Shown: piece by piece, positions 12,224 to 37,079 of the stretch
How the letters are laid out: each line of letters begins with the position of its first letter
How positions within the stretch are numbered: position 1 is the stretch's first letter
Assembly (NCBI GenBank): GCA_041753595.1
Contig: JBGSTW010000013.1
Span: 1-64,000 of the forward strand
DNA from: Bacteroidia bacterium
GTDB lineage: Bacteria > Bacteroidota > Bacteroidia > J057
DNA length: 64,000 bases
Direction: 5' to 3'
Program-made: the position numbers and the translations under genes
Notes under the pieces: generated by a model
What the model saw: only the letters and a program-made list of their open reading frames with translations
What the model was told of the DNA's origin: nothing
Databases searched by the model: none

Positions 12224-15172
12224 TCAGTGAACAATCTGAATGAGGCTTGTTCCGGGCAAATTTCCGGAATTCCAGCGTAATGCATACACTCCATTGGCCA
12301 CATCCCCTACCGACACGACCACATCGCCGTTTACATCGGTCATCTTAGCTGATTTCCATACCAACTTACCTGATAGGTCGTAGAGGTTGAGCGAAACCAT
12401 TTGTTGGGTAATGCCGCTGAAATGGAGTTTCCAGCTTCCGTTGTTTGGGTTAGGATATACGGTAACGCTTGTTCCTGCTGAAGGGTCAGTAATGGAAGTA
12501 GGCCGCTCGCCTATTACTACTATTTTTTGCGTAGCTGCTCCACCGCAGCCTGCATTCCCCTGAGACTGCAACGTAGCGAGGTATGAACCGGCCACCTGGT
12601 ATTGATAATTTACGACCTTGCTGGTGTCTGTCTGTCCATCGCCAAAACTCCATATCCGGCTCACGCTTCCGGGAGTTTGGTCGGTAAACTGGATAGATTG
12701 TCCCAAAGAGCGATTCATGAGGGTATCAGAAACTGCTATGGAAACCGCCAGGCCGCCAGGCCTTGCCCGGGCGATCACCCTGCGCCGAAGGCACGAAGGG
12801 TTAGAGGCAATTTTCCAGTCAAATATTCCCGGATAGGCACCTCCCGAAAGGGTAGAACCCGTAATGTTGATCACCCCCGGCTGCACCAAAGGATAATTTA
12901 CGCCTGAAGAAACAGCCAGGAGATTGCCTGTGCCGCTGATCTCCAGCAGGTAGGTCTTCCGGGATTCGATGTCAAAATCCACGGGTAAAATTTGCTTACC
13001 AGCCTGAAGTACTTTCGAGGTGCTGTTAATGATTTGCCCGAGGGTATCTTTCAATACAATGAAGGCAAAACCTGCACCGGTGGCATAAACCGTAACCGAT
13101 TCGAGGGTAAACCCCTGCAATGCTTCAAACCTGAGGGCACCCAATGCGGGAGACAAAGACCTGCCAATAGTATCGGCCAAACCCGCCCATACAGGTTCAT
13201 ATCCTTCTGCGTAAAAAGCAGTATCGGCCAGCAAAGGAGGGGTAAGAAACAGAGCGCCTTTTCCGAGCAATTGACCTCCGGTTGACCGGGAATACCAACG
13301 CACATCTCCGCTCAGCACCTGGGCCTGAAGCAGTGCGCGGGCGCCTTGGCAAGCCTCACCGGCTGTAACGGAGGGAATAGGACCGGTGGCAATAGTAAAG
13401 GTCGCTTCCCCATAGTTGTCGAGGGGGCGGTCGTCCGGCTGGTTATTTACTGAAATAATTTCTACCTGCATCCTGTAGGTGCCCGGCGAAAGCGAAGGGC
13501 CTGTAACTACCACGGGCTGTACCCCTCCGACGGGTATATTACCGGCCCAGGCGGTGGTATCCCAGTTTTGGCTATCGAAAGTGTAGCGGATAAGGGCGGT
13601 AGTCACAGGCAGGTTGCCCAGGTTTTTCATCACTACCACCGGAAGGGGATTGGGACTGCATACCTTTGCGGGCAGGTTCAGCACCTCTACAAATTCTACA
13701 TTCCGGTCATTGACAGGAGGCACCGGTATATGGCCCTGGCTAACGAGGTATTGGAAAGCGGCGCCGAGGTTGATCAGGCCGCGGCCATAGTCGTTATCTT
13801 CACCTACAGGTCCGAGATCCGTGGCAGAAAAATAAAGAGCAAGCTTGATCTGTGTTCCGGTGAGGTAGGGGAAAGCCTCCTTTAACAACACAATGGCACC
13901 CGTTACGTGCGGAGAGGCCATGGAAGTGCCCGACAAATTGCCATAAGTTCCATTAGGCAAGCTCGAACGCACATTCACGCCTGGCGCCGACACCTCCGGC
14001 TTAATCAGCAGTGCTGCCGTATCCCCGCAAATGGAAGGCCCCCGGCTGGAAAAATTGGCGATTGGAATCGAGGCAACGCTGGCTGCAACAGCACCTACAC
14101 AGAAGGTATTGACCAGATCGAGGTTGATATTTTTGGGAGGGGTAATGGTAGAGATGCCCGGACCACTATTGCCCGCAGAGAAAACCACCGCTATACCCGC
14201 CGTTTCGAGCGCAGTGAGCGTGCCTACATACAGGCTCTGGCATTCCGCCGAAAGTCCCCCGTTGAACCAGGAGTTGTTGATGGCATCTGGCATATCGTTG
14301 ATGGTCCCAGGGTCATTGTCCGGGTCCAGCGCCCATTGAAACGAAGCGATCGTTTTGTCGGTTGTAGATCCGCCTCCACAGATGCCCTGGGCCGCAATCC
14401 ACAAACCATTGAAAGCTACGCCGATGGTGTCGCGGGTGACGGGGTCGAGGCCCACCATGGTACCCACCGTATGGGTTCCGTGTCCGTCGCAGTCGTTAGG
14501 CGTGGTGCTGGTGCCGCTCGGATCGAACCATGACTGGGAGTCGCCTGCATATTTGCCGCGGTAGCGCGCTTTAAAAGCCGGATGCTCCGGATCAACCCCG
14601 GTATCCATGCTCATGGCGATGCGGGAGTAACCCGAATAACCCATTGCCCACAAGGCGGGAGCACCGATGGTTACCAGCCCGATTTCTTTGCCATTGGCCA
14701 CGGTAATACCCTTGGGCATAGTTGGCTCGCGGTAATAGTCTTCGAGAAATACCGGGTGGTTAAGGTCCAGGGAAGCCACTTCCGGGTGAGCAGCTATTGT
14801 TCCAATGGAAGAGGCATTTACCTTCACAAAAACGGCATTCACAATCCAGAAAGGACGGATGGAATTAACTTCAACCCCCTCCTGTGCACGTAACCACTGC
14901 AGGAAATCGGGCTGGGTGGCCTCCGCTTTTGCCTGCAGGCGCGTAATCACCTGAAAAGCTCTCTCCTCCAGCGACGCCTGGCGAAGGGTAAGCTCCTGCT
15001 CCAGCGCCGGAAGATTCACCTGGTTCTGAAACAGAATGCAGATGTCGTAGGTAGCAGCTCCAGTCTGCATTTCGGCAGCCAGTTCGGGGGAGATCTGAGC
15101 CGCTAGCTGTGCATAGGCGGGCATTGCCCCTGCGCCCAGCAAGAGCCATGCGCCTAAGAGGTATTTTTTCAT
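12224..15172 (-). CDS. S8 subtilisin-family serine peptidase with PKD domain and T9SS C-terminal sorting domain (paralogue 2 of 3)
   Basis: Motifs DTGVDPEHPAF, HGTHTVGT and GTSMASPHVTG. PKD motif WSFGDGQTDTS. C-terminal domain VTVYPNPNNGSWKLHF...VYALRWN. ATG at 15172 (MKKYLLGAWLLL); the ORF track extends upstream to 15223. Confidence 0.9.
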   Translation of the reverse strand: MKKYLLGAWLLLGAGAMPAYAQLAAQISPELAAEMQTGAATYDICILFQNQVNLPALEQELTLRQASLEERAFQVITRLQAKAEATQPDFLQWLRAQEGVEVNSIRPFWIVNAVFVKVNASSIGTIAAHPEVASLDLNHPVFLEDYYREPTMPKGITVANGKEIGLVTIGAPALWAMGYSGYSRIAMSMDTGVDPEHPAFKARYRGKYAGDSQSWFDPSGTSTTPNDCDGHGTHTVGTMVGLDPVTRDTIGVAFNGLWIAAQGICGGGSTTDKTIASFQWALDPDNDPGTINDMPDAINNSWFNGGLSAECQSLYVGTLTALETAGIAVVFSAGNSGPGISTITPPKNINLDLVNTFCVGAVAASVASIPIANFSSRGPSICGDTAALLIKPEVSAPGVNVRSSLPNGTYGNLSGTSMASPHVTGAIVLLKEAFPYLTGTQIKLALYFSATDLGPVGEDNDYGRGLINLGAAFQYLVSQGHIPVPPVNDRNVEFVEVLNLPAKVCSPNPLPVVVMKNLGNLPVTTALIRYTFDSQNWDTTAWAGNIPVGGVQPVVVTGPSLSPGTYRMQVEIISVNNQPDDRPLDNYGEATFTIATGPIPSVTAGEACQGARALLQAQVLSGDVRWYSRSTGGQLLGKGALFLTPPLLADTAFYAEGYEPVWAGLADTIGRSLSPALGALRFEALQGFTLESVTVYATGAGFAFIVLKDTLGQIINSTSKVLQAGKQILPVDFDIESRKTYLLEISGTGNLLAVSSGVNYPLVQPGVINITGSTLSGGAYPGIFDWKIASNPSCLRRRVIARARPGGLAVSIAVSDTLMNRSLGQSIQFTDQTPGSVSRIWSFGDGQTDTSKVVNYQYQVAGSYLATLQSQGNAGCGGAATQKIVVIGERPTSITDPSAGTSVTVYPNPNNGSWKLHFSGITQQMVSLNLYDLSGKLVWKSAKMTDVNGDVVVSVGDVANGVYALRWNSGNLPGTSLIQIVH

Positions 15173-15182
15173 GCTAAAATAA

Positions 15183-18155
15183 TCAAGGCGTAACGGTGAT
15201 TCGCTGAACCGACCGCTGGCCATTCAGATAAAGGGTAATGGCGTAAAATCCGGCGGGCTGAGCAGAAAGGTCCAGTACAAATTTTCCTGATTTCCCGTTC
15301 AGTTCTCCTGCTTTGATCTGGCGACCGGAGAGGTCGGTAAGCAACCACTGGGCAGCAGCAGGATTTTCCCATTCGTAGCTTACTTCGAAATAGTCGTTGC
15401 CAACATTCGGCCTTACTTCCCATTTTCCTGGAAAAGCAAAAGCAGGATCGATGGCAGTAGGAAAGCCTTCAGCCACGATTTGCAGGGTGTCGGCATCACC
15501 ACAACCGGTGCTACCTGTAGCAAACAAAGTAACGCGGTAGGTGCCAGGGAAGAGGAAGGTGTGATCCGGGTTTTGGGAAGTGCTGGTGGAGCCGTCGCCA
15601 AAATTCCAAAGCCAGGAAGTAGCTCCCTGCGACTGGTCGGTAAAGGTCACTACAGGGTTTGCCTGCAGGTTGATGGTGGTGGCGCTGGCAGCGATAGCAG
15701 CAGCTACGGTACCTGCTCCCACGGTGGCGGTAGCAGGCGTTCTTCCGCAAATACCTTCGTATTCAATTTCCCAGTCGTAGAAGAAATAGTAAAATTTGAG
15801 GGCAGAATTGTCGAGGTTGGAACCGATAATTTCCAGCACTCCGGGAATCACATACGGAAGTTGCAGGTTGGAGAAACTACGGTAAAGACCTCCCACACTG
15901 CCAGGGTTAAGGGCCAACTGCAGATTCTGACCAGCGGGTATGGTAAAATCCAGGTTAACCCTTGACTCACCAACAGGTACGTTTACAATTTTGGTTAACA
16001 ATATCTGGCTGGATGCACTGCGCAAAACAATCACCTGAAGACCTGCTACATTGGCGTAAATCTTCACTGACTTCAGCAAAAATGATTGGTCTGCGCTGAA
16101 GATCATATAGTTGTTCAGGGTGTTTTCATAATTACCGAGGTCGCCGGTATTGCCCGATTTCCCGATATTCTGGGTTTGCACCTGGGCTGCATAGTAGGTC
16201 GTATTGGCAGCAAGTGCAGGGGTAAAGAGGCTCGCACCTGTGGATACAAGCGTTCCACCTGTCTGGTTGGTGTACCACTTTACCTTTCCGGTATCTACCG
16301 AAGCGGTAAGCAGGGCCTGGCTGCCAGCACATACCGTGGCATTGGTGGTAACCGGGGCTTTGTCTCCGGAAATGGTAAATGACTTCTGGATCTTGTTATT
16401 CAGGTAGAAGTAGTCATTCTGACCATTGACCGTAATGGCTTCTACCACTAAGGTGTATTGTCCGGGAGCCAACGTGGCATTCGGGAACAGAATAGGCTGG
16501 GTAAGTCCGGCGGGTAAGCCACCCGTCCAGTTGAAGGTATCGGGGGTACCTCCGTCGTAGGAGTACACCATTTTGAGAGAAGTAAGCGGCTGGGTACCCT
16601 GATTTTTGATGCTGATAAACGGCAAAATAGAAGAGGTACAGTTGAGGTCATTTATATTCAGCACCTCCAGTACGGCTACATCCACCTCCCGCGAAACAGT
16701 CACCGGGGTATTGCCTTTACTTACGAGGTAGTTGTAAGCGGCCAAGACATTGATCATGCCATTCCCGTAGTCATTGTCTTCGCCCGGAGTGCCGAGGTCA
16801 TCAGCTGTGAGGAACAAGGCCATTTTTATTTCGCGACCCGTGAGGTACGGGAATGCCTCTTTGAGCAAAAGTACAGCACCCGTAGCGTGAGGAGACGCCA
16901 TGGAGGTACCTGTGAGCAATTGATATCCGCCATTGGGGCCAGCTGAGCGCACATTTACGCCCGGGGCACTTACCTCCGGCTTGATGGTGAGCGTTCCGAC
17001 AGGTGCGGGGCAAAGCGAAGGTCCCCGGCTGGAGCCGGGGTCAACGGGGTAATTGTTGTTGTTGCCATTGACCATGGCCACACAAAAAACATTGACGGTG
17101 TCAACGTTTATATTTTTGGGAGAAGTGATGGTGGATACACCGGGGCCATCATTTCCTGCGGCAAAAACCACAGCAACGCCTGCGGCTTCCAGGGCCACAA
17201 GGGCATCGCGGGTGGTAGAAGTACATTCCTGTCCGCCGGTTCCGCTGTTCCATGAATTGTTGATGGCATCGGGAATATCGTCGGTGGTGTTCGAGTTGTT
17301 GTCGGGGTTCAGGGCAAATTGAAAAGAAGCAACGGTGCTTACATTGCCACAACCGATCGCTGGAGCCGCCATCCACAATCCACCCGGGGCTACCCCGATG
17401 GTGTCTCTGGTAGCAGGATTGAGTCCCATGATCGTACCGGTCACGTGCGAGCCGTGGTTAGAACTGGGATCACAATCGGCAGGAAATGTGGTTCCGTTGT
17501 TGCTGTACCATGCCTGGCTGCCGGGTTTAAAATTTCCGAGGTAGCCCGCCTTGAGCGCGGGGTGCGTGCCTTGTACGCCTGAGTCGATGATATAGGCTAC
17601 CCGTCCGTATCCGGTATATCCGAGCTTCCACATTTCAGGGGCATGGATGGCGGTATGCCCGTTTTCGTGGCCATTGGCTGAGGCGATGCTTGCCGTAGCT
17701 GCGGTGGTCATGTCCAGCTCCATCGGTGCCTCCCAATCGATCCATTCTATATCCGTACGGTTGCTCAGAGCCGCGATGGCATCGTGATTGGCGCGCAATA
17801 CGACCGCATTTACAATCCAGATTGGCTGAACTGAATAGGGCTCAACGCCCGAAATCGTTTGAATGAAACTCAACAGCGGGCCCTGGGTGCTGGCGGCTTT
17901 GGCCTGCAGGGTTTGTACAACCACCCGTCCGCGGGTTTCCAGCGAAGCATTTGAGCGACGGAGGCTGAGCTCCAGGCTGTAAATATCTACCTTATCGGTA
18001 AGCGATACCACAATCTGCTGAAAGGCCTCGGGGTCCTGGGCCATGCGCATGAGCAAATCGGTGCTTACCCTTGTACCATCTAATATAGGTTGTGCTGTGC
18101 TTATCAATGGAAGCCAAAACACCAACAAAGCAAGGTTGCGTAAAACCTGTTTCAT
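15183..18155 (-). CDS. S8 subtilisin-family serine peptidase with PKD domain and T9SS C-terminal sorting domain (paralogue 3 of 3)
   Basis: Motifs DSGVQGTHPAL, HGSHVTGT and GTSMASPHATG. PKD motif WNFGDGSTSTS. C-terminal domain ...FEVSYEWENPAAAQWLLTDLSGRQ...FYAITLYL. ATG at 18155 (MKQVLRNLALLVFWLPLISTA). Only 10 bp separate its stop from the start of paralogue 2. Confidence 0.9.
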   Translation of the reverse strand: MKQVLRNLALLVFWLPLISTAQPILDGTRVSTDLLMRMAQDPEAFQQIVVSLTDKVDIYSLELSLRRSNASLETRGRVVVQTLQAKAASTQGPLLSFIQTISGVEPYSVQPIWIVNAVVLRANHDAIAALSNRTDIEWIDWEAPMELDMTTAATASIASANGHENGHTAIHAPEMWKLGYTGYGRVAYIIDSGVQGTHPALKAGYLGNFKPGSQAWYSNNGTTFPADCDPSSNHGSHVTGTIMGLNPATRDTIGVAPGGLWMAAPAIGCGNVSTVASFQFALNPDNNSNTTDDIPDAINNSWNSGTGGQECTSTTRDALVALEAAGVAVVFAAGNDGPGVSTITSPKNINVDTVNVFCVAMVNGNNNNYPVDPGSSRGPSLCPAPVGTLTIKPEVSAPGVNVRSAGPNGGYQLLTGTSMASPHATGAVLLLKEAFPYLTGREIKMALFLTADDLGTPGEDNDYGNGMINVLAAYNYLVSKGNTPVTVSREVDVAVLEVLNINDLNCTSSILPFISIKNQGTQPLTSLKMVYSYDGGTPDTFNWTGGLPAGLTQPILFPNATLAPGQYTLVVEAITVNGQNDYFYLNNKIQKSFTISGDKAPVTTNATVCAGSQALLTASVDTGKVKWYTNQTGGTLVSTGASLFTPALAANTTYYAAQVQTQNIGKSGNTGDLGNYENTLNNYMIFSADQSFLLKSVKIYANVAGLQVIVLRSASSQILLTKIVNVPVGESRVNLDFTIPAGQNLQLALNPGSVGGLYRSFSNLQLPYVIPGVLEIIGSNLDNSALKFYYFFYDWEIEYEGICGRTPATATVGAGTVAAAIAASATTINLQANPVVTFTDQSQGATSWLWNFGDGSTSTSQNPDHTFLFPGTYRVTLFATGSTGCGDADTLQIVAEGFPTAIDPAFAFPGKWEVRPNVGNDYFEVSYEWENPAAAQWLLTDLSGRQIKAGELNGKSGKFVLDLSAQPAGFYAITLYLNGQRSVQRITVTP

Positions 18156-18329
18156 GAAAGGTAATTGATAATGATCAGAAAGGGGGAAGAGTTGAATTCG
18201 AAAGATAAAACAAGCCCGGCAAAAATTCACCCGATTTCGTGGCATAGGCCCCGCAATATCCATCAACGGTTATAGGTTGGCTTTTCCAGGTTCCTGTCGT
18301 AATTTTCAAAATAAACCATATACAGCCCC

Positions 18330-20543: not shown

Positions 20544-21161
20544 TCAGGCATCCGCATCCTGGGGCCGGGTTTTCAGCACTATTTTCTTTTTGTTTCCCGT
20601 ACCTACCTGAGTCGCGGCCTGCTTATTGGCCAGCGATTCGGCGAGCTTGGCGCGTTTTTCAGCTTCGGCTTCCGGGGTCATGGTGGCAAATTCGAAGTTC
20701 AGGGCTTCCCGCTCAAAATGGCTATAGTCGTATTCGGGCGTCATGGTCAGGCACTCGGTGGGGCAAACGGTGGTGCAGAGCCCGCAAAAGCAGCACTTGG
20801 CAAGGTCGATGTCGAAAGTGGCCAGTTCGAGCCTTTTTTTGCTGCCGTCGGAAGTAGTGCCGAGGTCGTCCACCGCCTTGAATCCGTCGATGTCGATGCA
20901 GTCCACGGGGCAAATGCGCGCGCATTTATCGCATACAATGCAATCGTCCTCTTCGAGGTGTAGCTGATAGCGGCCATTGACAGGCGTAGGCACCGTTTCG
21001 CGAGGGTACTGAACCGTAACCGGACCATCGGGACGGTCAAAATAGCCCGCCGCCTGGATGCCCAGTTGATTTCGCCGGGTACCCGCCCGCCCAAAATGCC
21101 TGCCGGTAAGGAGCAAGCCGCCCACGAGGGTCTGCCAGGTCTGGAGGAATTCGCGTAGCAT
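20544..21161 (-). CDS. nuoI: NuoI-like 2x[4Fe-4S] ferredoxin (NADH-quinone oxidoreductase subunit I family)
   Basis: Two CxxCxxCxxxCP motifs: CIVCDKCARICPVDC and CCFCGLCTTVCPTEC, with NuoI-like spacing. ATG at 21161; the ORF track starts at a TTG at 21167. Confidence 0.75.
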   Translation of the reverse strand: MLREFLQTWQTLVGGLLLTGRHFGRAGTRRNQLGIQAAGYFDRPDGPVTVQYPRETVPTPVNGRYQLHLEEDDCIVCDKCARICPVDCIDIDGFKAVDDLGTTSDGSKKRLELATFDIDLAKCCFCGLCTTVCPTECLTMTPEYDYSHFEREALNFEFATMTPEAEAEKRAKLAESLANKQAATQVGTGNKKKIVLKTRPQDADA

Positions 21162-21260
21162 GGTCAAAGGTACTGGTTTTCGACTTTCCGCGACTGTGGG
21201 GATTTATTTTTCAAAACAGTTCCTTCGCTTGCATACATTTCCCGGCAGCTTCCACTCCGC

Positions 21261-24200
21261 TCAGGATTTGTCTTCGAGCACCTTGCGGATGGCTTCCATG
21301 TGGCTGGTAAACTGGCCGATGTCGCGCACCAGCTGGGCCATGTAGTCGGCGTTCAGGGCTTTTGTTTCCAGGAAAATGCGGCAGATTTCCTCCCACCTGT
21401 TTTTTTCTTTTTCTGAAAAACGGTCCATCATCCGCTTGAATGCCAGCATATTGGCCTCTGCCCCACTGGCCAGGGTTTGCGATTCGGCTTCGTAGTGGCC
21501 CATGATGAGGACATCCAGCTCGGTATCGTTCATCACGGGCGACACCTTTTCGGCGAGGCGACCCATGTTGCGGTAAGAGCCCTGCAGGCGGAAAGGCGGT
21601 TCACGGCGATAAGCCTCTGCCTGCGCAGCGGAGGAAATGTAGTTTTGGTTTACCTTCAGCACCACCTCGCGCACCACCAGCAGCTTTTTCAGCACCGACA
21701 CGGCGTCGTTCAACTCGTCGGGAGAGAAATTGCTGGAAAACTCAGCACCGGCCAGATCCCCCGTTTCGGCGAGGCGATAGAGCGTGTAGAGGTCCTCCTG
21801 CGGGCGTGAAGCGAGCGAAGCCAGCACCGGATTGCTGGTGAGGGCATTTTCGATATAGCTCAACCGGAAAGCTGATTCATTGCCACCGAGCATGTCGCCG
21901 AGGTTGTAGATATCTGCCCGGTTGGCGAGCATGTCGGGTATCGTAAACCGCTCGCCCGACTCGGTATAGGGGTTTCCCGCCATCACGATTGCCAGCCGCC
22001 TCCCGCGAAAATCATAAGTGCGGCTTTTGCCTTTGTACACGCCTTCTACCTTGCGCTGGGCATCGCAGAGGGAGATGAATTTTTGTAAAAATTCGGGGTG
22101 GGTATGCTGGATGTCGTCGAGGTAGATCATCACGTTGTCGCCCATCTCAAAAGCGAGGTTGAGCTTTTCCAGCTCCTCGCGGGCAGCGGCGTTGGTAGCA
22201 GCACCAGGGTCGAGCGAGGTTACCTGATGACCCAGCGAAGGGCCGTTTATTTTCATAAAAATCAACCCCAGCCGCTGCGCTACATACTCCACCAGGGTCG
22301 TTTTGCCGTAGCCTGGCGGGGATATCAGAAGCAGCATGCCCGAACGGTCGTTGCGCGATTGCTCGTCGGCTGTGCCGATTTGCTTGGCAAGGTTGGCCCC
22401 GATCATCGGTAGGTAGACCTCGTTGATCAGGCGGTTGCGCACAAATCCACTCATGGGCCGCGGCCGGAAATCGTCGAGGCGGATCTGGGCGGTAAATGCC
22501 TGCACCAGCCGGGTTTTGAGCGAAGTAAACGTGCGGAAAAGCGGTGCCAGCTCGAGGTCGAAGTGGCGCATTTTCCCCGAAAAACCGTGATAATCGAGCG
22601 CATAGCTGCCCTGTTCGATCAGCTTGTGCTCCCCGCGCATACCGGGTATGACTTCTTCGCTCGAAGCGGCATGCACCGATTTCTCCTTCCAATCGTCGAT
22701 ATACATCAGCCCGGCAACCTCAGCGGCTGCATGGTAGGGGTCGGCGATACCTTCTTTGGCCAGGTAGGAGCGCACCCAGCCGAGCATGAGCCGATACCTC
22801 TCCACCGAATGATTTTCGAGGGCGGTTACCTGCGCCTGAAAAGCGGTGGCTGCCTTTATTTTTTTCAGAAAAACAAAAAATCCCTTAAACATCGTACCGG
22901 CCAGCTTGCTGATGGGCAGGTCGGCAGATCGGGAGCTGATATCCATCAGGAAATCAACCGCCGCGGCAGCCTCTTGTGGGTCGCCCCAACCTGCTGCGGC
23001 AAACGCGGCAACCTTCTCCTGCAATTCTGCCTTAATTTCCGCTGCCCAGGCCGCGCCGATATCCAGCTTGCGCACCGCATCGGCCGCTTCGAGCCGGGCT
23101 TTCCACACGGGCAATTCTTCAGCGCTCAGTCCTGCAAACAAAAACAACCGCCCCAGGGTGCGTACCGAAGGCGCATAGGCCAGCAGGCCCAGGCCCGATT
23201 TCAAGCGGAGTAAGCCCTCCACGATCAAGGTGGCGTCGTGGTCGTGCACGCCTTTCACGTATCCTTCCTGAAACCGGTCGGCCATGAAGGTGCGCACCTG
23301 CTCGCCCGTGTCGCCCAGCGGATCAAATGCCGGGGTTTCCAGCAGCTTATAGGCGAGGTATTCGGCGCGGTAAACGGCGGTATTTTCGGAGGGAAGCGAT
23401 TGGCTCCAAACGGGACGGGTGGCATCCAGTTCGGGGTCGTTGATGGGTTCGAAAAAGCGGGTGCCCGTAAGGTGGTAAGACAGCTGGTCGTGCTGCAACG
23501 CCACGGTAGCTTCGAGGGGGTGCTGCTGCACCGAAAAGCGGTGATTGCCCAGTTTCAGCACATGGGCCTGGTCCTCAAATATCTCTTTCCGGTCGCGGAG
23601 CTGGCGTACGGCTTCTTCGCGGAGGCCCTGCAGGCGGCTCATCAACTCGGTGGCACGGGTGGGGTCGTTGAGGCTTTGGAGTTGGGTGGCGAGGTCGCGC
23701 ACCTTCACCGCCATGAGGTCGGCAGCAAAGTAGGCGTTTATTTCGTCGGGGCTTTCCATGCGGGCGAGGCGCTGGCGGATGCCTTTCAGGATGCGGTCTC
23801 CGGCATCGGCGAGGGAAGCAGATTTACGGTTACGCTCCTCCACGAGGGACACGCGCCGGGCTTCGAAGGTCTGCACTACTTCTTCGCGCTTGAGGGCAAG
23901 GTCGGTGGCAAATTCTTCAAAATCAGCAAATTTCCCATCCAGCTCCTCCAGTTGCACGGTGAGGCGGGTGAGGTATTCGTCGCATTTTTCGGGCGAGTCG
24001 CTGAGCTCAAAGTAGTTGGAGATCGACTGCGAAAAGAGCCGGAGCTGCGCGTGAAATTCGGCCGAGGCCTCGGCTTTGCGCAGGTCTTTGCGGCGGTTGC
24101 GAAGGGCGCTGCGAATGGCGTTTATTTCGGAGAAAAGAACCGAGATACGGTCAATGATGGCCGTGGTTTGGGTAGCGTCTTCGATGGGCAGGCTGCCCAC

Positions 24201-26099
24201 GGTTTCGATCAGCAATTCGAGCTGACGGGCGGCTTCGTCGAGCAGCTTTTCTACCTTATTGGCTTCGGCTACCTTGGTTACGGCTTCAGCTTCTTTGCGG
24301 AGGCGGGCGGCGGTTTCCTGGTATGGCTGCAGGGCTTCGGCTTTCAGCAAAAAAGCCACACAGTCACGGGCCAGGGCCAGCGATTGCGCGCCGATGCGGT
24401 TTTCCCAGTCAGAAAGGGCTTCGAGGTCGGCGTAGCGCAGATCCCGCAGAGTAATCACTTCTCCTTTCAGCCCCCGCAAATCGCTGAGGTAACCGACAAA
24501 TTCCTGCACTTGGCGGGCACCGTGGCGGCGTACTTTGTCGAGCAGGGTCGTAGCTTTTTCTGCAAATGTACCCACCGAATCGCGGGCCAGGGCCTGCAGA
24601 CGGCGCACTTTTTCAAATTCATCTATGGCGGCGGAAGCGGCAGCTTTTACCCCCGTGACCGGCACCGAAAGCTCAAAAGCTTCTTTATTTTTCAGCCAAT
24701 AATACCCGTCGAGGATATCGCCTGCTTTTTTGGATACATCGAGGTAGAGGCTGTTGTAGGGATCGGGTTTTTCGAGCAGGGTAAGCAGCTCGCGGCATTC
24801 GGCCAGGCCTTTCACGAGGTCTTTGTTGCCCACACGTGCCAGCCACGAATCGCTCACGGTATCGGCCGAGGCGGTATCGATGCCGTAAGGGGTCGTCCAG
24901 ACCTGAATCGTGTGCCGCCTGCCGGGCTCGGCTTCGGCCCTGAAATAGCAGAGCTCCCCGCCCGGGAAAAGCGAAAATCCCTGGCAAACAATGGGCGTAT
25001 CGGCCTGCTGGGCCACGAGGTTGTACGGAAAAAGGGTGTAGTCGCCCAGCTCGGGGTTGGTGAACACGTAGAGGAAATCTTCGCCGTTCGGGGAAGTAAT
25101 CCTTTTTTCAAACTGAAGGCCGGGGGGTATTTTTTCAAACACCTTGTAACCGCCCGTTTGGAGGTAAAAACCGCTGGGGAAAATAAGCCCCTGGTTGTCG
25201 GGCAGGAGTACGCAGGCCCCTTGCAGTGCATCGATCCGCACGGCGGTAGCCAGTTTTTCGTTCACCACGATGTAGCGAAAGTCGCGTTCCTGGTAGGGTT
25301 TTACCTTGAGTACGATGAGGTTTCCTACAAAAGCGTAGTAGATCTCAGCGTCGTCCAGGGTCTGGTCGGGCTGGGTGACGGCTTCGGAGAAAATGCCTTT
25401 GCCGGTGTCGGTATTGTCCTCCACCTTCACGGTAAGGTCACCGCCGATGGTTTCTACAAAGATGTGGTCCTCAATGGAAATATGCGGGTGCTTGCCCTTG
25501 CGGTGCATGTCGCGGGTGGTGCGCTTCCACTGAAACTCGTGCTGATCGGGGAAACGAAACTCGTGGTCGAAGCGGTTGCCCTGGTAGTGGAGCTCGTTTT
25601 CGCGTACGGTCCACTTAAAGGTGCGGATGTCGGAGATGGTTTTCCCGGTCTGAAAAACCATGAACAGGTTGGGGCCAATGACCGCAAATTTCGAGAAGAC
25701 CGTTTCTCGGTAGTATTTGTAGAGGTTGTTAAAATCTTCGAGAAAACGAGCGTCTTCGATCATCTCCAGCGAAAGCGGCTTAAAGCTGAAGTCGCTGGTT
25801 TCGAATTGAAAAACGCTGAATACGTCGGCCAGTTTTACTTCTGTCCGCAACCCGATGTGCACATTGTAGCCAAACAAGAGCGTGTCTCCGATCGCGGCCA
25901 TGTCGCGGGGGAGGCAATTGTTGTCGGTGGTGACATGGTTCGTGGCGGCCAGCTTGGGTTCGCGTGCGCCGAAAATTTCTTTCCGGGCGGCGTTCAGCTG
26001 GTCCATACGGCTGCGCAGGTCCTGGGCCTGGGTGTCCAGGCGTTGTTTCAGGATGTCGTAAGCGCCCGTATCGAGCGCCACGTTTTCAGGTTGTGACAT
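21261..26099 (-). CDS. giant (~1612 aa) multidomain protein with a single AAA_5/MoxR-type AAA+ ATPase domain near residue ~1230; function unknown
   Basis: Walker A LLLISPPGYGKTTLVEY. Walker B VMIYLDDIQH. Followed by RRLAIVMAGNPYTESGERFTIPDMLANRADIY, where MAGNP resembles the MoxR/dynein-type NP motif. The N-terminal ~450 aa are beta-rich, the middle ~700 aa are strongly helical, and the C-terminal ~250 aa are helical. ATG at 26099, with a TTG at 26105. Confidence 0.85.
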   Translation of the reverse strand: MSQPENVALDTGAYDILKQRLDTQAQDLRSRMDQLNAARKEIFGAREPKLAATNHVTTDNNCLPRDMAAIGDTLLFGYNVHIGLRTEVKLADVFSVFQFETSDFSFKPLSLEMIEDARFLEDFNNLYKYYRETVFSKFAVIGPNLFMVFQTGKTISDIRTFKWTVRENELHYQGNRFDHEFRFPDQHEFQWKRTTRDMHRKGKHPHISIEDHIFVETIGGDLTVKVEDNTDTGKGIFSEAVTQPDQTLDDAEIYYAFVGNLIVLKVKPYQERDFRYIVVNEKLATAVRIDALQGACVLLPDNQGLIFPSGFYLQTGGYKVFEKIPPGLQFEKRITSPNGEDFLYVFTNPELGDYTLFPYNLVAQQADTPIVCQGFSLFPGGELCYFRAEAEPGRRHTIQVWTTPYGIDTASADTVSDSWLARVGNKDLVKGLAECRELLTLLEKPDPYNSLYLDVSKKAGDILDGYYWLKNKEAFELSVPVTGVKAAASAAIDEFEKVRRLQALARDSVGTFAEKATTLLDKVRRHGARQVQEFVGYLSDLRGLKGEVITLRDLRYADLEALSDWENRIGAQSLALARDCVAFLLKAEALQPYQETAARLRKEAEAVTKVAEANKVEKLLDEAARQLELLIETVGSLPIEDATQTTAIIDRISVLFSEINAIRSALRNRRKDLRKAEASAEFHAQLRLFSQSISNYFELSDSPEKCDEYLTRLTVQLEELDGKFADFEEFATDLALKREEVVQTFEARRVSLVEERNRKSASLADAGDRILKGIRQRLARMESPDEINAYFAADLMAVKVRDLATQLQSLNDPTRATELMSRLQGLREEAVRQLRDRKEIFEDQAHVLKLGNHRFSVQQHPLEATVALQHDQLSYHLTGTRFFEPINDPELDATRPVWSQSLPSENTAVYRAEYLAYKLLETPAFDPLGDTGEQVRTFMADRFQEGYVKGVHDHDATLIVEGLLRLKSGLGLLAYAPSVRTLGRLFLFAGLSAEELPVWKARLEAADAVRKLDIGAAWAAEIKAELQEKVAAFAAAGWGDPQEAAAAVDFLMDISSRSADLPISKLAGTMFKGFFVFLKKIKAATAFQAQVTALENHSVERYRLMLGWVRSYLAKEGIADPYHAAAEVAGLMYIDDWKEKSVHAASSEEVIPGMRGEHKLIEQGSYALDYHGFSGKMRHFDLELAPLFRTFTSLKTRLVQAFTAQIRLDDFRPRPMSGFVRNRLINEVYLPMIGANLAKQIGTADEQSRNDRSGMLLLISPPGYGKTTLVEYVAQRLGLIFMKINGPSLGHQVTSLDPGAATNAAAREELEKLNLAFEMGDNVMIYLDDIQHTHPEFLQKFISLCDAQRKVEGVYKGKSRTYDFRGRRLAIVMAGNPYTESGERFTIPDMLANRADIYNLGDMLGGNESAFRLSYIENALTSNPVLASLASRPQEDLYTLYRLAETGDLAGAEFSSNFSPDELNDAVSVLKKLLVVREVVLKVNQNYISSAAQAEAYRREPPFRLQGSYRNMGRLAEKVSPVMNDTELDVLIMGHYEAESQTLASGAEANMLAFKRMMDRFSEKEKNRWEEICRIFLETKALNADYMAQLVRDIGQFTSHMEAIRKVLEDKS

Positions 26100-26121
26100 G
26101 GCCAAAGGAAGTTTTCAGGGA

Positions 26122-28299
26122 TCAGGAAATGCCCGCCTGGTCGGCTGTTTTGTCGCTGATACCGAGAGATTCGACCACGCCCATGAGCTGCTGCAGCACC
26201 CCGCGCTGCGACTTATCGTTGGTCTGCGCCATCATTTTCAGGATCAGCGCCGACATCGAGAGGTTTTTGAGGTCGTCGGTCGATACCTTAAACTGGGCAA
26301 TAAACTCGCGCAATTTTCCCGTAAACTGGTTGTCGGAGCCGTCGCCAATCAGCTGGTTTTTGAGGCCATTGAGGGTGGAGCTGTGCTCAAAGAGGTTATC
26401 GACGTATTTGGCACTGACGACCGAACGGGTGATGCGGTCGAAGAACTCCTGCTCACCCCCGATGATGTCGATGTTGGCAGATTTGAGGGCTTCGGCGATG
26501 ACCATGGCCTGGGAAGCGGCCACGTCCTTCTGCACGTTGATGCGGGCGAGCTCGACCACTTTCTGCATGTCGAGGCGGAGCTTAAACTCCTCGTGGTCTT
26601 TGCCCACGCCGTCGAGCTGCTTCATGGCTTCGGCTTTGGCCTGTACGCCTTTGGCATCGGCTACGGCTTTGAGCTCGATAACGGTAGCTTCGCTGCGGCC
26701 CATTTTTTCTACGGCAGAGGCTTTCACTTCCGTTACTTCGGCTTCTACCTTGCCTTGTTCCGATTTCAGGGCGTTTTCGGTTTGTCCGAGGCGCTGGTTG
26801 GCATCGGCCTGGGCTTCGCCTTTGAGCTGTATGCCCTGGGCTTCGGCTTCGGCTTTCATGCGCAGCACATTGGCTTCCGCAAAACCTTCTTTTTCCTTGG
26901 CATGGGCCTTGGCTTCGAGCACGCGGGCTTCGGCTAGTCCGAGGGCGGCATGTTCTTCGGCCACGGCATCGGCCATTATTTTTTTGGCTTCGGCGTCCTT
27001 GTCCACGGCTTCGCGCTCGGCGGTAGCCACGATCAGGCGGGTTTGAGATTCGAGCTGGGCAGCTTCTTTTTGGGCTTCAGCGCCTTTTATTTTCACCACC
27101 AATTGCTCCTGAGCCTTTTGCTCGGCGGCGAGGATAGCTACCTTTTTGGAGCGCTCGGCCTCGGCAAAAGCAGAGGTATCTTTTATTTTTTCCTGCTCTT
27201 CTACCACGGCACGCTCCACCACCACGCGGTCGCGGATCACGTCCTGGATATTTTTCTTTTCCTCCTCCACGGCCTTTTCTTTGCCGATCTGCGCAATGGC
27301 CACGATGCGTTCGCGGTCGGTAGATTCGAGCTGGCGGTCGCGCTCCACTTTTTCGCTTTCTACGGCCAAGGTGCGCTCTTTGCTCTTCTGGGCCACGATC
27401 ACGTCGCGGGTTTTATTCTGCTCTTCGATGTCGATCTCCCGCTCGCGGGCGATGCGGGCGCGCTCGGATTTGGTCAGCTCTTCCTGCTGCACCCGCTTGA
27501 TTTCGGCTTCTTCGCGTGCTTTTACCGAGGCAACCTCCCGCTTCTGGATTTCTTCTTTTTCTGAAAGCTGGCGATTCAGCTCCAGAATGGCTTCCTGGGC
27601 TTCTACGTCCTGGCGCTTGATTTCCTTTTCCTTGTTGCGCTGAATTTTGTTGGCGAGGGTAATCTGGTGGCTGGTCAGCTCGCGGATTTTCTTGATACCC
27701 TCGGCGTCGAGGATGTTGTTTTCGTTGAGGAAGTCGATGGGGGTTTGCTCCAGGAAGTCGATGGCGCAGTCGTCGAGTACGTAGCCGTTGAGGTCGCGGC
27801 CGATGAGGTTCATGATTTCTTCGCGGAATTTTTCGCGGGCGTTGTACAGCTCCACAAAATCAAACTTCTTGCCCACGGTTTTGAGGGCTTCGGAGAACTT
27901 GGCTTCGAACAGGAGATTGAGCAGCTCGTGGTCGGAGGCACGGGCACAGCCGATGGTTTGGGCTACCTTCTTCACGTCGTCCACCGTGGGATTTACCCGC
28001 ACAAAAAATACCACCTTGATGTCGGCCCGGAGGTTGTCTTTACAAATAAGGCCCTCTTTGCCTTCGCGGGAAATCATCACCTGCTTCAGGGATATCTCCA
28101 TGGTTTCGGCATTGTGCAGGAGCGGGATGACCCACATACCTTCAAAAGCGACTCGGGTATTGCCGTAGCCGGTGCGCACCAGGGCTTTTCCCTGGGTTAC
28201 TTTTCGGTAAAAAAGGGAGATCAACGTCACGTAGCCAAAAATGGCCACCAGTACAATGACGCCGAAAATGATCCCAATGTTGAGTAGGAGGTTGTTCAT
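26122..28299 (-). CDS. flotillin-family SPFH/Band-7 protein (long form, 725 aa)
   Basis: N-terminal TM helix IGIIFGVIVLVAIFGYVTLI. The SPFH domain spans RTGYGNTRVAFEGMWVIPLLH...TQ. A long E/K/A-rich coiled-coil follows, then a flotillin C-terminal region. Confidence 0.9.
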   Translation of the reverse strand: MNNLLLNIGIIFGVIVLVAIFGYVTLISLFYRKVTQGKALVRTGYGNTRVAFEGMWVIPLLHNAETMEISLKQVMISREGKEGLICKDNLRADIKVVFFVRVNPTVDDVKKVAQTIGCARASDHELLNLLFEAKFSEALKTVGKKFDFVELYNAREKFREEIMNLIGRDLNGYVLDDCAIDFLEQTPIDFLNENNILDAEGIKKIRELTSHQITLANKIQRNKEKEIKRQDVEAQEAILELNRQLSEKEEIQKREVASVKAREEAEIKRVQQEELTKSERARIAREREIDIEEQNKTRDVIVAQKSKERTLAVESEKVERDRQLESTDRERIVAIAQIGKEKAVEEEKKNIQDVIRDRVVVERAVVEEQEKIKDTSAFAEAERSKKVAILAAEQKAQEQLVVKIKGAEAQKEAAQLESQTRLIVATAEREAVDKDAEAKKIMADAVAEEHAALGLAEARVLEAKAHAKEKEGFAEANVLRMKAEAEAQGIQLKGEAQADANQRLGQTENALKSEQGKVEAEVTEVKASAVEKMGRSEATVIELKAVADAKGVQAKAEAMKQLDGVGKDHEEFKLRLDMQKVVELARINVQKDVAASQAMVIAEALKSANIDIIGGEQEFFDRITRSVVSAKYVDNLFEHSSTLNGLKNQLIGDGSDNQFTGKLREFIAQFKVSTDDLKNLSMSALILKMMAQTNDKSQRGVLQQLMGVVESLGISDKTADQAGIS

Positions 28300-28329
28300 G
28301 GGAGGGAAGAAAAATGGTTTATTCAGAGA

Positions 28330-28992
28330 TTATTCAAAAGGTGAAACCAGATAAATGTCTTTTTCCGGGTCAAATTCAACGATGAGTGCCTGGGTGCCTT
28401 TTTCCAGGGCAATATCGCCTTCAGCGGCGGCATTGAGCTGAAAATGGCCTTCGTCGGTTTGTAAACTGATGCTGCCCATGCGGCCCGGAGAGATTCGGGT
28501 AACGACCTCGCCTATTTTCCCCACCAGCTCTTTCTTTTCTTTACCGCCCGCATTCATTTTCGCAAACATGCCCTTGAAAGGACTGGTAAATACCTTGGTG
28601 AGAAACAGGCCGATGAGGAGATTGGGAATCAGCCAGATCAGGAAAAACAAAGCCAAAGCACCCCCTATCAGCCGCTCGCCGATGAGCGAACCCGCCCACA
28701 GAAAAAAGGTGAAAAAGGTGAAAAATACCATGAAGGGTACTTTTCCAAGGTTGAAAAACGCGAGGGTTTCGAGTAAAAATCCCCCACCGGCGCCATCGCC
28801 ATCGTGCATGTCGCCATCGTGGCTGAGGTCGGCATCGTGGCTGAGGTCCGCGTCGTGGTCGGTGTGTATGTCGAGAAAATTGAGGTCGAGGGCCCCAAGA
28901 AATACCGTGACCCAGTACACCAGCACCAGCAGGAGGAGCAGGGTGTAAAAGATATGTACCGGAGAAAATGCAAGTCGAAACAGTTCAGCCAT
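28330..28992 (-). CDS. NfeD-like (YqiJ/YuaF-like) membrane protein, flotillin partner
   Basis: N-terminal TM helix and an acidic His/Asp loop HDADLSHDADLSHDGDMHDGDG. Further TM helices, then a C-terminal OB-fold-like soluble domain GKIGEVVTRISPGRMGSISL...LIVEFDPEKDIYLVSP. ATG at 28992, with a TTG at 28998. It sits 30 bp upstream of the flotillin gene. Confidence 0.8.
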   Translation of the reverse strand: MAELFRLAFSPVHIFYTLLLLLVLVYWVTVFLGALDLNFLDIHTDHDADLSHDADLSHDGDMHDGDGAGGGFLLETLAFFNLGKVPFMVFFTFFTFFLWAGSLIGERLIGGALALFFLIWLIPNLLIGLFLTKVFTSPFKGMFAKMNAGGKEKKELVGKIGEVVTRISPGRMGSISLQTDEGHFQLNAAAEGDIALEKGTQALIVEFDPEKDIYLVSPFE

Positions 28993-29215
28993 ATTCAAAA
29001 TATTACGACATGCCCATACACTACTGATCTATCCTGCCAGCTTATCGCTTTCAAGGTATTCACAGTAAAAAAGCAGATTTTACCCGAAGGTTGAAACAGG
29101 GAACAGGAATTTAATCAGTATAATTTTCTTCCCCGCTTGCTAACACTTCAGTCTATGCCTGGGCAATACACAGCGCGGCTCCGTCACTTTTAAAAGAACT
29201 ATTGACCTTCTACTC

Positions 29216-35602: not shown

Positions 35603-36247
35603 CTACTTCGATAGGCGGTAAATAGCCGACACCTCTGCCTGAGCGTATTGCCTGGGCCATGCGTTGTCGTCGAAACTGTAGTTGTAGCTGCCCGCGATTC
35701 CGAGGTCTAGGTTTGGCACAATAGGCCAGCGTAATTCGAATCCACCTGTAAAATATCCCCGGTATGGATCTTGAGCTTTTCCCCAATATGTGGTTCTCCT
35801 TGCCGAAAATTTATCAAAAGTATAATACCGCCCTCCTCCAATTAACCAACTGGGCAAATAGCCGAGCGAAATACGGAACTGCCCCCGGTTATTTTCAGCA
35901 GCAGACAAGCGATAGGAGAGTTTTACAGGCGTTTGGAGGAAATAATCCAGCGAGGCTTGAGACTTTGGGCAGCCGGGAAGGTCGCCCAGCCAACCCGTAT
36001 CACAGACATAGTTTTTCCCGGATTGCTTTTCTTTAAATGTGGAAAAAGTGGCACCAACCGAAACACCTAGCCTTCCCAATAACTGCGTCTCATAGCCCAG
36101 CGCCAGGCCATGTCCGAAGGTGAGAAGGTCCGAATTGCCCTTTGGATAATGGTAATAGGTGGTGGTAATGCCCAGGCTCAGAGATTGCTGGCCCCAAAGC
36201 GGGCTCAGTAGCATTCCAAGGAGTAAGAAGAAGATTAAGCGTCTCAT
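35603..36247 (-). CDS. small outer-membrane beta-barrel protein (paralogue A)
   Basis: Signal peptide, then GQQSLSLGITT. The C-terminus ...WPRQYAQAEVSAIYRLSK ends K rather than the usual aromatic residue, which is atypical for a beta-barrel. The last ~20 codons and ~12 nt of the downstream flank are nearly identical to paralogue B. Confidence 0.6.
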   Translation of the reverse strand: MRRLIFFLLLGMLLSPLWGQQSLSLGITTTYYHYPKGNSDLLTFGHGLALGYETQLLGRLGVSVGATFSTFKEKQSGKNYVCDTGWLGDLPGCPKSQASLDYFLQTPVKLSYRLSAAENNRGQFRISLGYLPSWLIGGGRYYTFDKFSARRTTYWGKAQDPYRGYFTGGFELRWPIVPNLDLGIAGSYNYSFDDNAWPRQYAQAEVSAIYRLSK

Positions 36248-36434: not shown

Positions 36435-37079
36435 CTACTTCGATAGGCGGTAAATGGCCGACACCTCTGCCTGAGCGTATTGCGTGGGCCATTTTTTTTT
36501 CTGGAGCGAAAGAAAATAACTGCCTTCAAACCCCACGCTGAGCTTTCGTCCCAGCGGATGGCTAAACGCTACCCCGCCTGTCCAGTAATTAATGCGCCGA
36601 TATCTGGGCGTAAGCCCGGACCAATGGGATTCATAATAATTGGGGTAGTGCTTGAACTTAGCCTTTAAAGCGATACCTTCTAAATTACTCGGCATATAAC
36701 CAAGGAAAAGGCGGGTTTGCCAGTTCTCGTTTTTAAGTGAGGACAATCTATAAGTTAACCTGAGGGGTACCTGAAAACGATAGGAGTAGTACATTTCAGC
36801 CGTTGGGCAAGAGGGACCTGGGGGAGAAAAACCGCGATCACAGATGAGATTGCGACCGGTATATTTACCTTTAAAGGCATTGAAATTAGCTCCTACGGAC
36901 ATCCCAAACCGCCAGAAAAGCTTCGTGTCAAATGCCAGCGTCACGCCATGCCCGGCAGATAAGTAGTCAGCTCTTTCTTCGTGGGAGTAGATAGTCGTAA
37001 TGCCCAGGCTCAGGGATTGCTGGCCCCAGGCCGAAAGGGTCAAAACCGCAAGCAGCAGGGTGAGGTAAAATGGTTTCAT
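36435..37079 (-). CDS. small outer-membrane beta-barrel protein (paralogue B)
   Basis: Signal peptide MKPFYLTLLLAVLTLSAWGQQSLSLGITT. The C-terminus is WPTQYAQAEVSAIYRLSK. Confidence 0.6.
   Translation of the reverse strand: MKPFYLTLLLAVLTLSAWGQQSLSLGITTIYSHEERADYLSAGHGVTLAFDTKLFWRFGMSVGANFNAFKGKYTGRNLICDRGFSPPGPSCPTAEMYYSYRFQVPLRLTYRLSSLKNENWQTRLFLGYMPSNLEGIALKAKFKHYPNYYESHWSGLTPRYRRINYWTGGVAFSHPLGRKLSVGFEGSYFLSLQKKKWPTQYAQAEVSAIYRLSK

Follow-up and report, generated by a model that had tools for sequence, protein, structure and literature searches.

We analysed a 64-kb window of DNA from a Bacteroidia bacterium (positions 1 to 64,000 of contig JBGSTW010000013.1) and focused on four consecutive open reading frames (ORFs) of its minus strand, which encode, from the first to the last, a small membrane protein of the YqiJ/YuaF type, a long flotillin, a giant AAA+ ATPase and a NuoI-like ferredoxin. 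The ORF calls extended over positions 28330..28998, 26122..28299, 21261..26105 and 20544..21167, and the start codons favoured by alignments of homologues were the ATG codons at 28992, 28299, 26099 and 21161, respectively. With these starts, the YqiJ-like and flotillin genes were separated by 30 bp, the flotillin and giant genes by 22 bp, and the giant and ferredoxin genes by 99 bp. These were the coordinates and the spacing given in an earlier note on this DNA, which had been made from the letters alone and which described the four genes as one tightly packed module. The translational coupling that it considered probable for the first three genes found no support, as these genes do not overlap in the window.

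A sigma-70 scan across the region, of a kind that is ill-suited to Bacteroidota promoters, returned promoter-like sites that were not above those of shuffled sequence, and a terminator scan detected no minus-strand terminator-like site inside the gene gaps. The TAnnTTTG motif, a Bacteroidota promoter motif of the -7 type, was absent from the 217 bp upstream of yqiJ. Only two copies of this motif were found on the minus strand between 20.4 and 30.2 kb (9.8 kb), one inside the giant gene and the other just before the ferredoxin ATG.

The first gene (28330..28992, minus strand) encodes a protein of 220 amino acids (aa), for which hydropathy indicated three transmembrane (TM) segments. From the N- to the C-terminus, this protein is characterized by TM1 (aa 14-32), an acidic, D-rich linker, TM2 and TM3 (aa ~82-131) and a C-terminal, OB-like NfeD domain (aa ~150-220). 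The Pfam NfeD model did not match it, and the YqiJ_N model reached 17.9 bits, under its cutoff of 23; among the orthologues, YqiJ_N matched 5 out of 16 and NfeD 2 out of 16. The profile of the family, when compared with Escherichia coli YqiJ, aligned over almost the full length (hhalign probability of 95.8%, E = 7.8e-9, 182 columns), and a weak match was obtained to the structure of YuaF (2k14). The NfeD assignment made in the earlier note thus failed in Pfam but stood through the comparison with YqiJ. Taking this alignment together with hydropathy and synteny, the predicted product is a three-TM protein of the YqiJ/YuaF type, i.e., a short NfeD, with an NfeD-type C-terminal domain.

The second gene (26122..28299, minus strand) encodes a protein of 725 aa, identified as a long flotillin of the YqiK/FloT type by BLASTP against YqiK and by synteny. 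It is composed of an N-terminal TM anchor (aa 4-22), an SPFH domain (aa ~30-200), a coiled coil (aa ~200-560) and a C-terminal flotillin oligomerisation region; TM prediction gave a single segment, and the composition of the middle region was E/A/K-rich. The similarity to E. coli YqiK (BLASTP E = 2e-45, 29% identity over 440 aa, aa 11-446) spanned the TM anchor and SPFH domain (aa 11-200) as well as the coiled coil. No Pfam model, Band_7 (PF01145) included, and no NCBIfam model matched the 725-aa protein, even at E ≤ 10, and Band_7 was detected in only 2 of the 18 flotillin orthologues, with a best E of 7e-14. A sequence search of the PDB with the single protein returned noise only, while the profile of the flotillin family gave one weak match, to the QmcA cage structure 8z5g.

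As in the case of the NfeD protein, the earlier call of a flotillin did not pass the Band_7 check but was upheld by BLASTP against YqiK. Because the direct comparisons with E. coli YqiK and YqiJ do match, both identities are right, and the missing Band_7 match reflects an insensitivity of the model to the long-flotillin subfamily rather than non-membership. Domain-based screens would overlook this subfamily, which represents an annotation gap. The pair was also recognised as YqiJ-YqiK-like beforehand, and both BLASTP and hhalign agreed with this view: E. coli yqiJ-yqiK and B. subtilis (Bacillus subtilis) yuaF-floT are homologous pairs with the same order, NfeD first, and a tight gap. Two differences were observed. 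The flotillin of the window, which Band_7 misses, is about 170 aa longer than that of the E. coli yqiJK and B. subtilis yuaF-floT type, and, unlike in the window, there is no giant ATPase downstream of yqiK in E. coli.

Predicted architecture of the giant ATPase

The third gene (21261..26099, minus strand) encodes a soluble ATPase of 1,612 aa, in which no TM segment was predicted and which carries the Pfam families DUF3686, DUF7902 and AAA. DUF3686, whose Pfam title is 'ATPase involved in DNA repair', matched aa 27-467 with an E of 1.4e-180, and DUF7902 matched aa 588-671. AAA_5 reached 24.5 bits against a cutoff of 22, and AAA was also above threshold. The AAA_5 domain that had been assigned to this protein was therefore confirmed by Pfam, but DUF3686 and DUF7902, which had not been named, gave far stronger matches. 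More than 4,800 homologues were found, with one architecture throughout and, across phyla, 44-55% identity over 1,600 aa. At 50% identity, the DUF3686 clusters numbered 702 among 1.84 billion representatives, and this rare domain occurred essentially only in proteins of 1,600-1,900 aa.

Two AlphaFold2 (AF2) models were built from 46-row alignments, one for aa 1-900 and one for aa 850-1612, with predicted local distance difference test scores (pLDDT) of 84.6 and 83.1, respectively. The first region (aa 1-402; 24894..26099, minus strand), which represents most of DUF3686 and for which the pLDDT was mostly 85-92, consists of an N-terminal helix (aa 11-43) and an all-β domain of about 30 strands (aa 49-402). 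Foldseek matches of this domain in the PDB included IFT-A, Elp1, Sec12, the clathrin terminal domain, DCAF1 and prolyl oligopeptidase (E from 3e-7 to 1e-4), and we read it, from the model, as a β-propeller. It is followed by a helical rod of three-helix bundles resembling spectrin repeats, which includes DUF7902 (aa 419-840; 23580..24845, minus strand), and by a small β unit with an α-helical domain (aa 847-1219; 22443..23561, minus strand). This latter part was the least conserved of the whole protein, with a column conservation of 0.40-0.55 over aa 950-1200, compared with 0.8-0.9 in the AAA+ module.

Conservation within the protein is highest in the AAA+ module (aa ~1220-1450; 21750..22442, minus strand), where Walker A, sensor-1 and the Arg-rich motifs were invariant. 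Walker A corresponds to SPPGYGKTT (aa 1260-1268) and sensor-1 to N1376, with a β-hairpin ahead of sensor-1 at aa ~1350-1363. In the Walker B motif, VMIYLDD (aa 1323-1329; 22113-22133, minus strand), hhhhDE is replaced by hhhhDD: D1328 and D1329 were invariant in alignments of 14 and of 46 sequences, with Asp at the usual position of the catalytic Glu. A C-terminal helical extension, as assigned by DSSP on the AF2 model, continues beyond the AAA+ lid (aa 1451-1612; 21264..21749, minus strand), with a conservation of 0.7-0.8 up to aa 1550. Overall, the models depict a β-propeller that leads into a spectrin-like rod of helices and then into an AAA+ module of the MoxR type.

MoxR proteins, such as CbbQ, NorQ and RavA, are about 300-500 aa in length and are usually paired with VWA proteins. 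The AAA+ fold of the giant protein was nearest to members of this family and has the β-hairpin before sensor-1; the canonical hhhhDE form of Walker B was not found. In comparison with CbbQ, NorQ and RavA, the giant protein is much longer (1,612 aa), adds the propeller and the rod, carries DD in Walker B and has a flotillin and a YqiJ-type protein as its conserved partners.

A role in DNA repair, as suggested by the NCBI name of the family and by the Pfam title of DUF3686, was also considered. Apart from the name itself, such a role would be consistent with a similarity to RuvB, which was limited to about 45 residues around the P-loop (E from 1.6e-4 to 4e-4). However, no DNA-binding, nuclease or helicase domain was present in either AF2 model, the conserved partners are membrane proteins, and no paper in the searchable literature ties the giant family to DNA repair. 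We rejected this function on the basis of the models and of the membrane partners, and regard it as most improbable.

Long antisense ORFs were also observed along these genes: one of 952 aa (23238-26096, plus strand) across the 5' half of the giant gene, and others over the flotillin gene, both in the window and in three related loci (L039, L061 and L063). The most likely explanation is that codon and composition bias created shadow ORFs. The sequence that codes for the E/A/K-rich coiled coil accounts for an AT skew of -0.33 over 26-28 kb.

Extent of the conserved gene neighbourhood

A profile search with the giant protein retrieved at least 595 genomic places, and the best 80 loci were examined by tblastn with the four proteins of the window, supplemented by ORF clustering. 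These 80 loci spanned Bacteroidota, Planctomycetota, Verrucomicrobiota, Kiritimatiellota, Omnitrophota, Desulfobacterota and Firmicutes. A co-directional flotillin gene, whose product showed 45-65% identity, was located upstream of the giant gene in 60 of the 65 loci in which 2.5 kb or more of sequence precedes that gene. The YqiJ-like gene was found by tblastn upstream of the flotillin gene in 53 of the 58 testable loci, with four more being recovered by ORF clustering. Gaps between the NfeD-like and flotillin genes were often from -8 to +30 bp, and the gap between the flotillin and giant genes had a median near 70 bp. The expectation that homologues of the giant protein would be syntenic with flotillin and NfeD across phyla was thus borne out (60/65 and 53-57/58 loci, in at least seven phyla).

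Unrelated genes were present between the flotillin and giant genes in roughly one locus out of five. Such inserts (L041 8715-9383; L008 8621-9250; L073 2478-3347; L009 9191-9940; L003 6992-8158; L040 9525-9944) encoded an AbiEii toxin, a DMP19 protein, an esterase, a DUF3784 protein, a lipoprotein or a PD-(D/E)XK protein. This gap looks like a tolerated insertion site within a conserved operon.

The fourth gene (20544..21161, minus strand) encodes a NuoI-like 2x[4Fe-4S] ferredoxin of 205 aa. Families of the Fer4 type matched this protein, which has two CxxCxxCxxxCP motifs, and its earlier Fer4 call passed the check with hidden Markov models; TIGR01971 (NuoI) scored 94.2 bits, under its cutoff of 113. 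No nuo genes adjoin the ferredoxin gene in the window or in the examined loci of its homologues (L083 and L084), which does not point to a NuoI subunit of complex I. The ferredoxin belongs to a large set of Bacteroidota genes that stand alone and are described as 'NuoI / 4Fe-4S dicluster' proteins, often with the annotation NuoI. Members of this family range from 170 to 355 aa overall, with C-terminal extensions of variable length.

The earlier note had included this gene in a four-gene, possibly redox-linked assembly. The ferredoxin gene is indeed co-directional with the giant gene and lies 99 bp downstream of it, in a gap free of minus-strand terminator-like sites, which would make read-through possible in this genome. 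However, no ferredoxin homologue was found by tblastn within 10 kb of the giant gene in any of the 80 loci. In the nearest relative of the giant protein (L082, 76% identity), the three genes are followed by a convergent HTTM gene where the window has the ferredoxin. Homologues of the ferredoxin were instead located in contexts unrelated to the three genes (L083 8558-9202; L084 10001-10645); one of them, in Pontibacter sp. G13 (L084), resembles the ferredoxin gene of the window in having S8 peptidase genes beside it, and within 10 kb of it no giant-ATPase gene was called. Moreover, a TAnnTTTG motif (TACCTTTG; 21165-21172, minus strand) ends 4 nt upstream of the ferredoxin ATG, a hint that this gene may have its own promoter and a near-leaderless mRNA.

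Since the ferredoxin was absent from all 80 loci and from the nearest relative, and since its homologues stand in unrelated contexts, it is placed by these comparisons outside the conserved module, as a chance co-directional neighbour. The four-gene redox machine is refuted as a conserved module, the redox link finds no support, and we consider this reading to have almost no chance of being correct. The idea of a tightly packed module held for the other three genes, and the conserved unit delimited by synteny consists of the YqiJ-type, long flotillin and giant ATPase genes.

Membrane-stress context and a possible role of the three genes

An operon including a CesT/Tir-PspA dyad and a 3-TM YqiJ/YuaF protein has been described in silico by Ravi, Anantharaman et al. 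(mSystems 2024, PMC11237479; preprint 2020). In their Table S3, the gene order in Dokdonia is CesT_Tir, [PspA], YqiJ-YuaF, Band-7+CC+Flotillin and, last, Betapropeller+Coiled-coil+AAA-ATPase (PMC11237479). The three genes of the window have the same three architectures (TM, Band-7, coiled coil and flotillin; 3-TM YqiJ/YuaF; propeller and coiled-coil AAA+) in the same gene order, and the long form with CesT, PspA and helix-turn-helix (HTH) genes was recovered in 16 of the 80 loci. Abbreviated operons, consisting of flotillin and YqiJ and sometimes the ATPase only, are more widely distributed (PMC11237479). Relative to the full operon, the window has the three genes only, with a DUF4405-like gene upstream and the ferredoxin gene downstream, neither of which is conserved. 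It is thus very probable that these genes belong to the flotillin/YqiJ/AAA+ operon class associated with the phage shock protein (PSP) response, in its abbreviated form.

The statement that the module could not be assigned to any described system is overturned by this in silico operon (PMC11237479); the narrower one, that it corresponds to no characterised system, holds, as no experimental work on the three genes or on the ATPase was found in the searchable literature. No paper in that literature names DUF3686/PF12458 or joins 'DNA repair ATPase' with flotillin, and the ATPase is unmentioned in Hinderhofer 2009, Popp 2022, Makarova 2024 and the Pseudomonas aeruginosa SPFH paper. What is known is the operon as an in silico prediction, and the giant family is misnamed 'DNA repair ATPase' in NCBI without evidence.

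Among the loci examined here, the 16 with the long form were all from Bacteroidota and had genes for a 131-aa CesT_Tir_1 protein and a 243-aa PspA/IM30 protein directly upstream of the three genes, along with a divergent XRE HTH gene. In a 17th Bacteroidota locus, PspA was encoded near the giant gene, on its other side. In four Bacteroidota loci, the giant gene was followed by genes for DUF4178, an unassigned protein, DUF350 (YjfL) and a 7TM-spermine/spermidine synthase (L019 7084-10886; L012 15001-19113; L048 6277-10196; L079 4687-9388). This DUF4178/DUF350/spermine-synthase set constitutes a separate PspA-associated operon in Ravi et al. (PMC11237479), and two PSP-linked gene sets are joined in these loci. 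Finally, a PLD-like gene (PLDc_2, HKD) was present by the operon in four Bacteroidota loci (L044 4302-4982; L012 3256-3951; L004 15492-15968; L071 1317-1802), and a PLD gene also occurs in proteobacterial versions of the operon (Ravi et al., PMC11237479).

The gene content of some loci could also suggest anti-phage defence or abortive infection, in which the large NTPase would sense infection and the membrane proteins would act as effectors. Defence systems commonly combine a large P-loop protein with partners in the membrane, unrelated genes of mobile or toxin type (AbiEii, PD-(D/E)XK, DMP19 and Uma2) lie beside or within the operon in some genomes, and weak PADLOC matches to IetA and LmuB were obtained (E from 0.0025 to 0.04). 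However, for all four proteins of the window, matches in PADLOC-DB v2 were limited to the P-loop (~28 residues) or to the coiled coil and were not significant, and a known defence system was rejected on this ground. In addition, the giant family is strongly conserved with a fixed architecture, in contrast to the greater variability that is usual among defence genes. In the window, the surrounding genes are of the housekeeping or secreted-enzyme type, and PspA, CesT and polyamine genes are the partners that recur. A defence role is therefore considered improbable.

A role in envelope stress or membrane remodelling, one of those put forward in the earlier note, was the best-supported reading, with PspA, CesT-like, PLD-like, DUF350 and spermine-synthase genes adjoining the three genes in subsets of the loci. 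Homology, membrane topology (three TM segments in the YqiJ-like protein, one in the flotillin and none in the giant protein), predicted folds and synteny constitute the results; from them we infer how the parts might act together. The flotillin, anchored by its N-terminal helix, and the YqiJ-type protein would oligomerise at the inner membrane and build an SPFH dome or ring on its cytoplasmic side. The giant protein, which lacks a membrane segment, would dock on this flotillin-YqiJ scaffold through its propeller and rod, and would form a ring via its AAA+ module. With ATP as its fuel, it would build up, take apart or reshape the scaffold polymer and, where PspA is encoded alongside, might also act on the PspA/ESCRT-III-like polymer, in the setting of envelope stress or membrane repair.

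Several findings in other bacteria provide a background to this scheme. SPFH proteins form membrane-attached cages, such as QmcA-YbbJ and HflK/C, according to work cited in PMC13086221. FloA-NfeD of Staphylococcus aureus is a stress-protective pair, which stabilises unfolded proteins without ATP (PMC11222466). In B. subtilis, the SPFH protein YdjI recruits PspA to the membrane, as reported in PMC8581546.

Membrane scaffolds of the SPFH type that are paired with AAA+ proteins include HflK/C-FtsH and prohibitin-m-AAA. The theme that these would have in common with the three genes, i.e., an oligomeric SPFH scaffold at the membrane together with a ring ATPase, is proposed as a functional analogy only. 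Unlike FtsH and the m-AAA proteins, the giant protein lacks both a protease domain and a membrane anchor. Its AAA+ module resembles those of MoxR proteins and not the classical type, and the flotillin dome would face the cytoplasm instead of the periplasm. A second likeness is to Vps4/CdvC and ESCRT-III, as 16-17 loci showed the ATPase gene in linkage with one of the PspA/ESCRT-III superfamily and as a polymer-remodelling logic is proposed here. In contrast with Vps4/CdvC, the giant protein has no MIT domain and lies outside the classical AAA clade, and PspA is absent from most loci. The propeller and spectrin-like arms are also reminiscent, in their layout, of membrane-coat proteins.

The main alternative was a different division of labour, in which flotillin and NfeD would act as a holdase for unfolded or damaged membrane-associated clients, and the giant protein would recognise these clients through its propeller and extract, unfold or refold them, without acting on the scaffold. 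The stabilisation of unfolded proteins by FloA-NfeD (PMC11222466) fits such a scheme and, being ATP-independent, would gain an energy-dependent step from an ATPase partner. Proteins of the MoxR type have a chaperone-like character, and the synteny fits this arrangement as well as it fits scaffold remodelling. Against it, no protease or co-chaperone was conserved in the operon, and the repeated association with PspA, PLD and polyamine genes favours membrane and polymer dynamics over proteostasis. We regard client unfolding as unlikely.

The proposal of a scaffold-remodelling motor must be weighed against a number of observations that count against it. The Asp-Asp pair in Walker B may, judging from the motif, indicate slow or switch-like hydrolysis rather than a processive motor. 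No VWA gene was found among the scanned neighbour clusters common to at least four loci, a scan that did not cover every neighbour gene. In five loci (L001, L007, L011, L035 and L062), the giant gene had no flotillin gene within 2.7-10 kb upstream, so that the ATPase and flotillin need not be encoded together. The 64-kb window contained neither a PspA nor a CesT homologue and therefore carries the abbreviated form, and the searched literature reported no physical interaction, ATPase activity or phenotype for any member of the operon.

Taken as a whole, membership of the PSP class combined with a scaffold-remodelling motor is the best explanation, and one that we hold to be somewhat probable. 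For the mechanism on its own, i.e., a motor that would remodel the scaffold in envelope stress by analogy with the systems above, our estimate falls a little short of even. More tentative still is the view of the giant protein as the dedicated motor of flotillin/PspA assemblies, in which a MoxR-like ring with a propeller and spectrin-like arms would reshape microdomains in envelope stress. If true, the giant protein would be the equivalent, in bacteria, of Vps4/ESCRT-III or of SPFH-AAA supercomplexes, and the first dedicated energy-consuming partner of flotillins. The function of bacterial flotillins is debated, and the known activities of flotillin-NfeD are ATP-independent; the giant protein gives a testable handle on energy-dependent dynamics of microdomains and of PspA.

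Other features of the window

Upstream, the three genes are flanked by genes for a DUF4405-like membrane protein and an unassigned 432-aa protein, and downstream by SnoaL, DUF2214, SDR and S8 peptidase genes; none of these is related to the three genes. No tRNA was found in the window, and a scan with Rfam returned nothing. Two S8 subtilase paralogues of about 1,000 aa are encoded in tandem (12224-15223 and 15183-18266, both on the minus strand) and share 41% identity, the latter also carrying PKD and Ig-like domains. Sorting domains of the type IX secretion system (T9SS) are encoded in the window. A second tandem pair (35603-36247 and 36435-37079, both on the minus strand) encodes paralogues of 214 aa with 45% identity, the first of which had no Pfam match. 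The C-terminus of these two proteins, QYAQAEVSAIYRLSK, is identical and may, as a sequence feature, fit outer-membrane β-barrel proteins.

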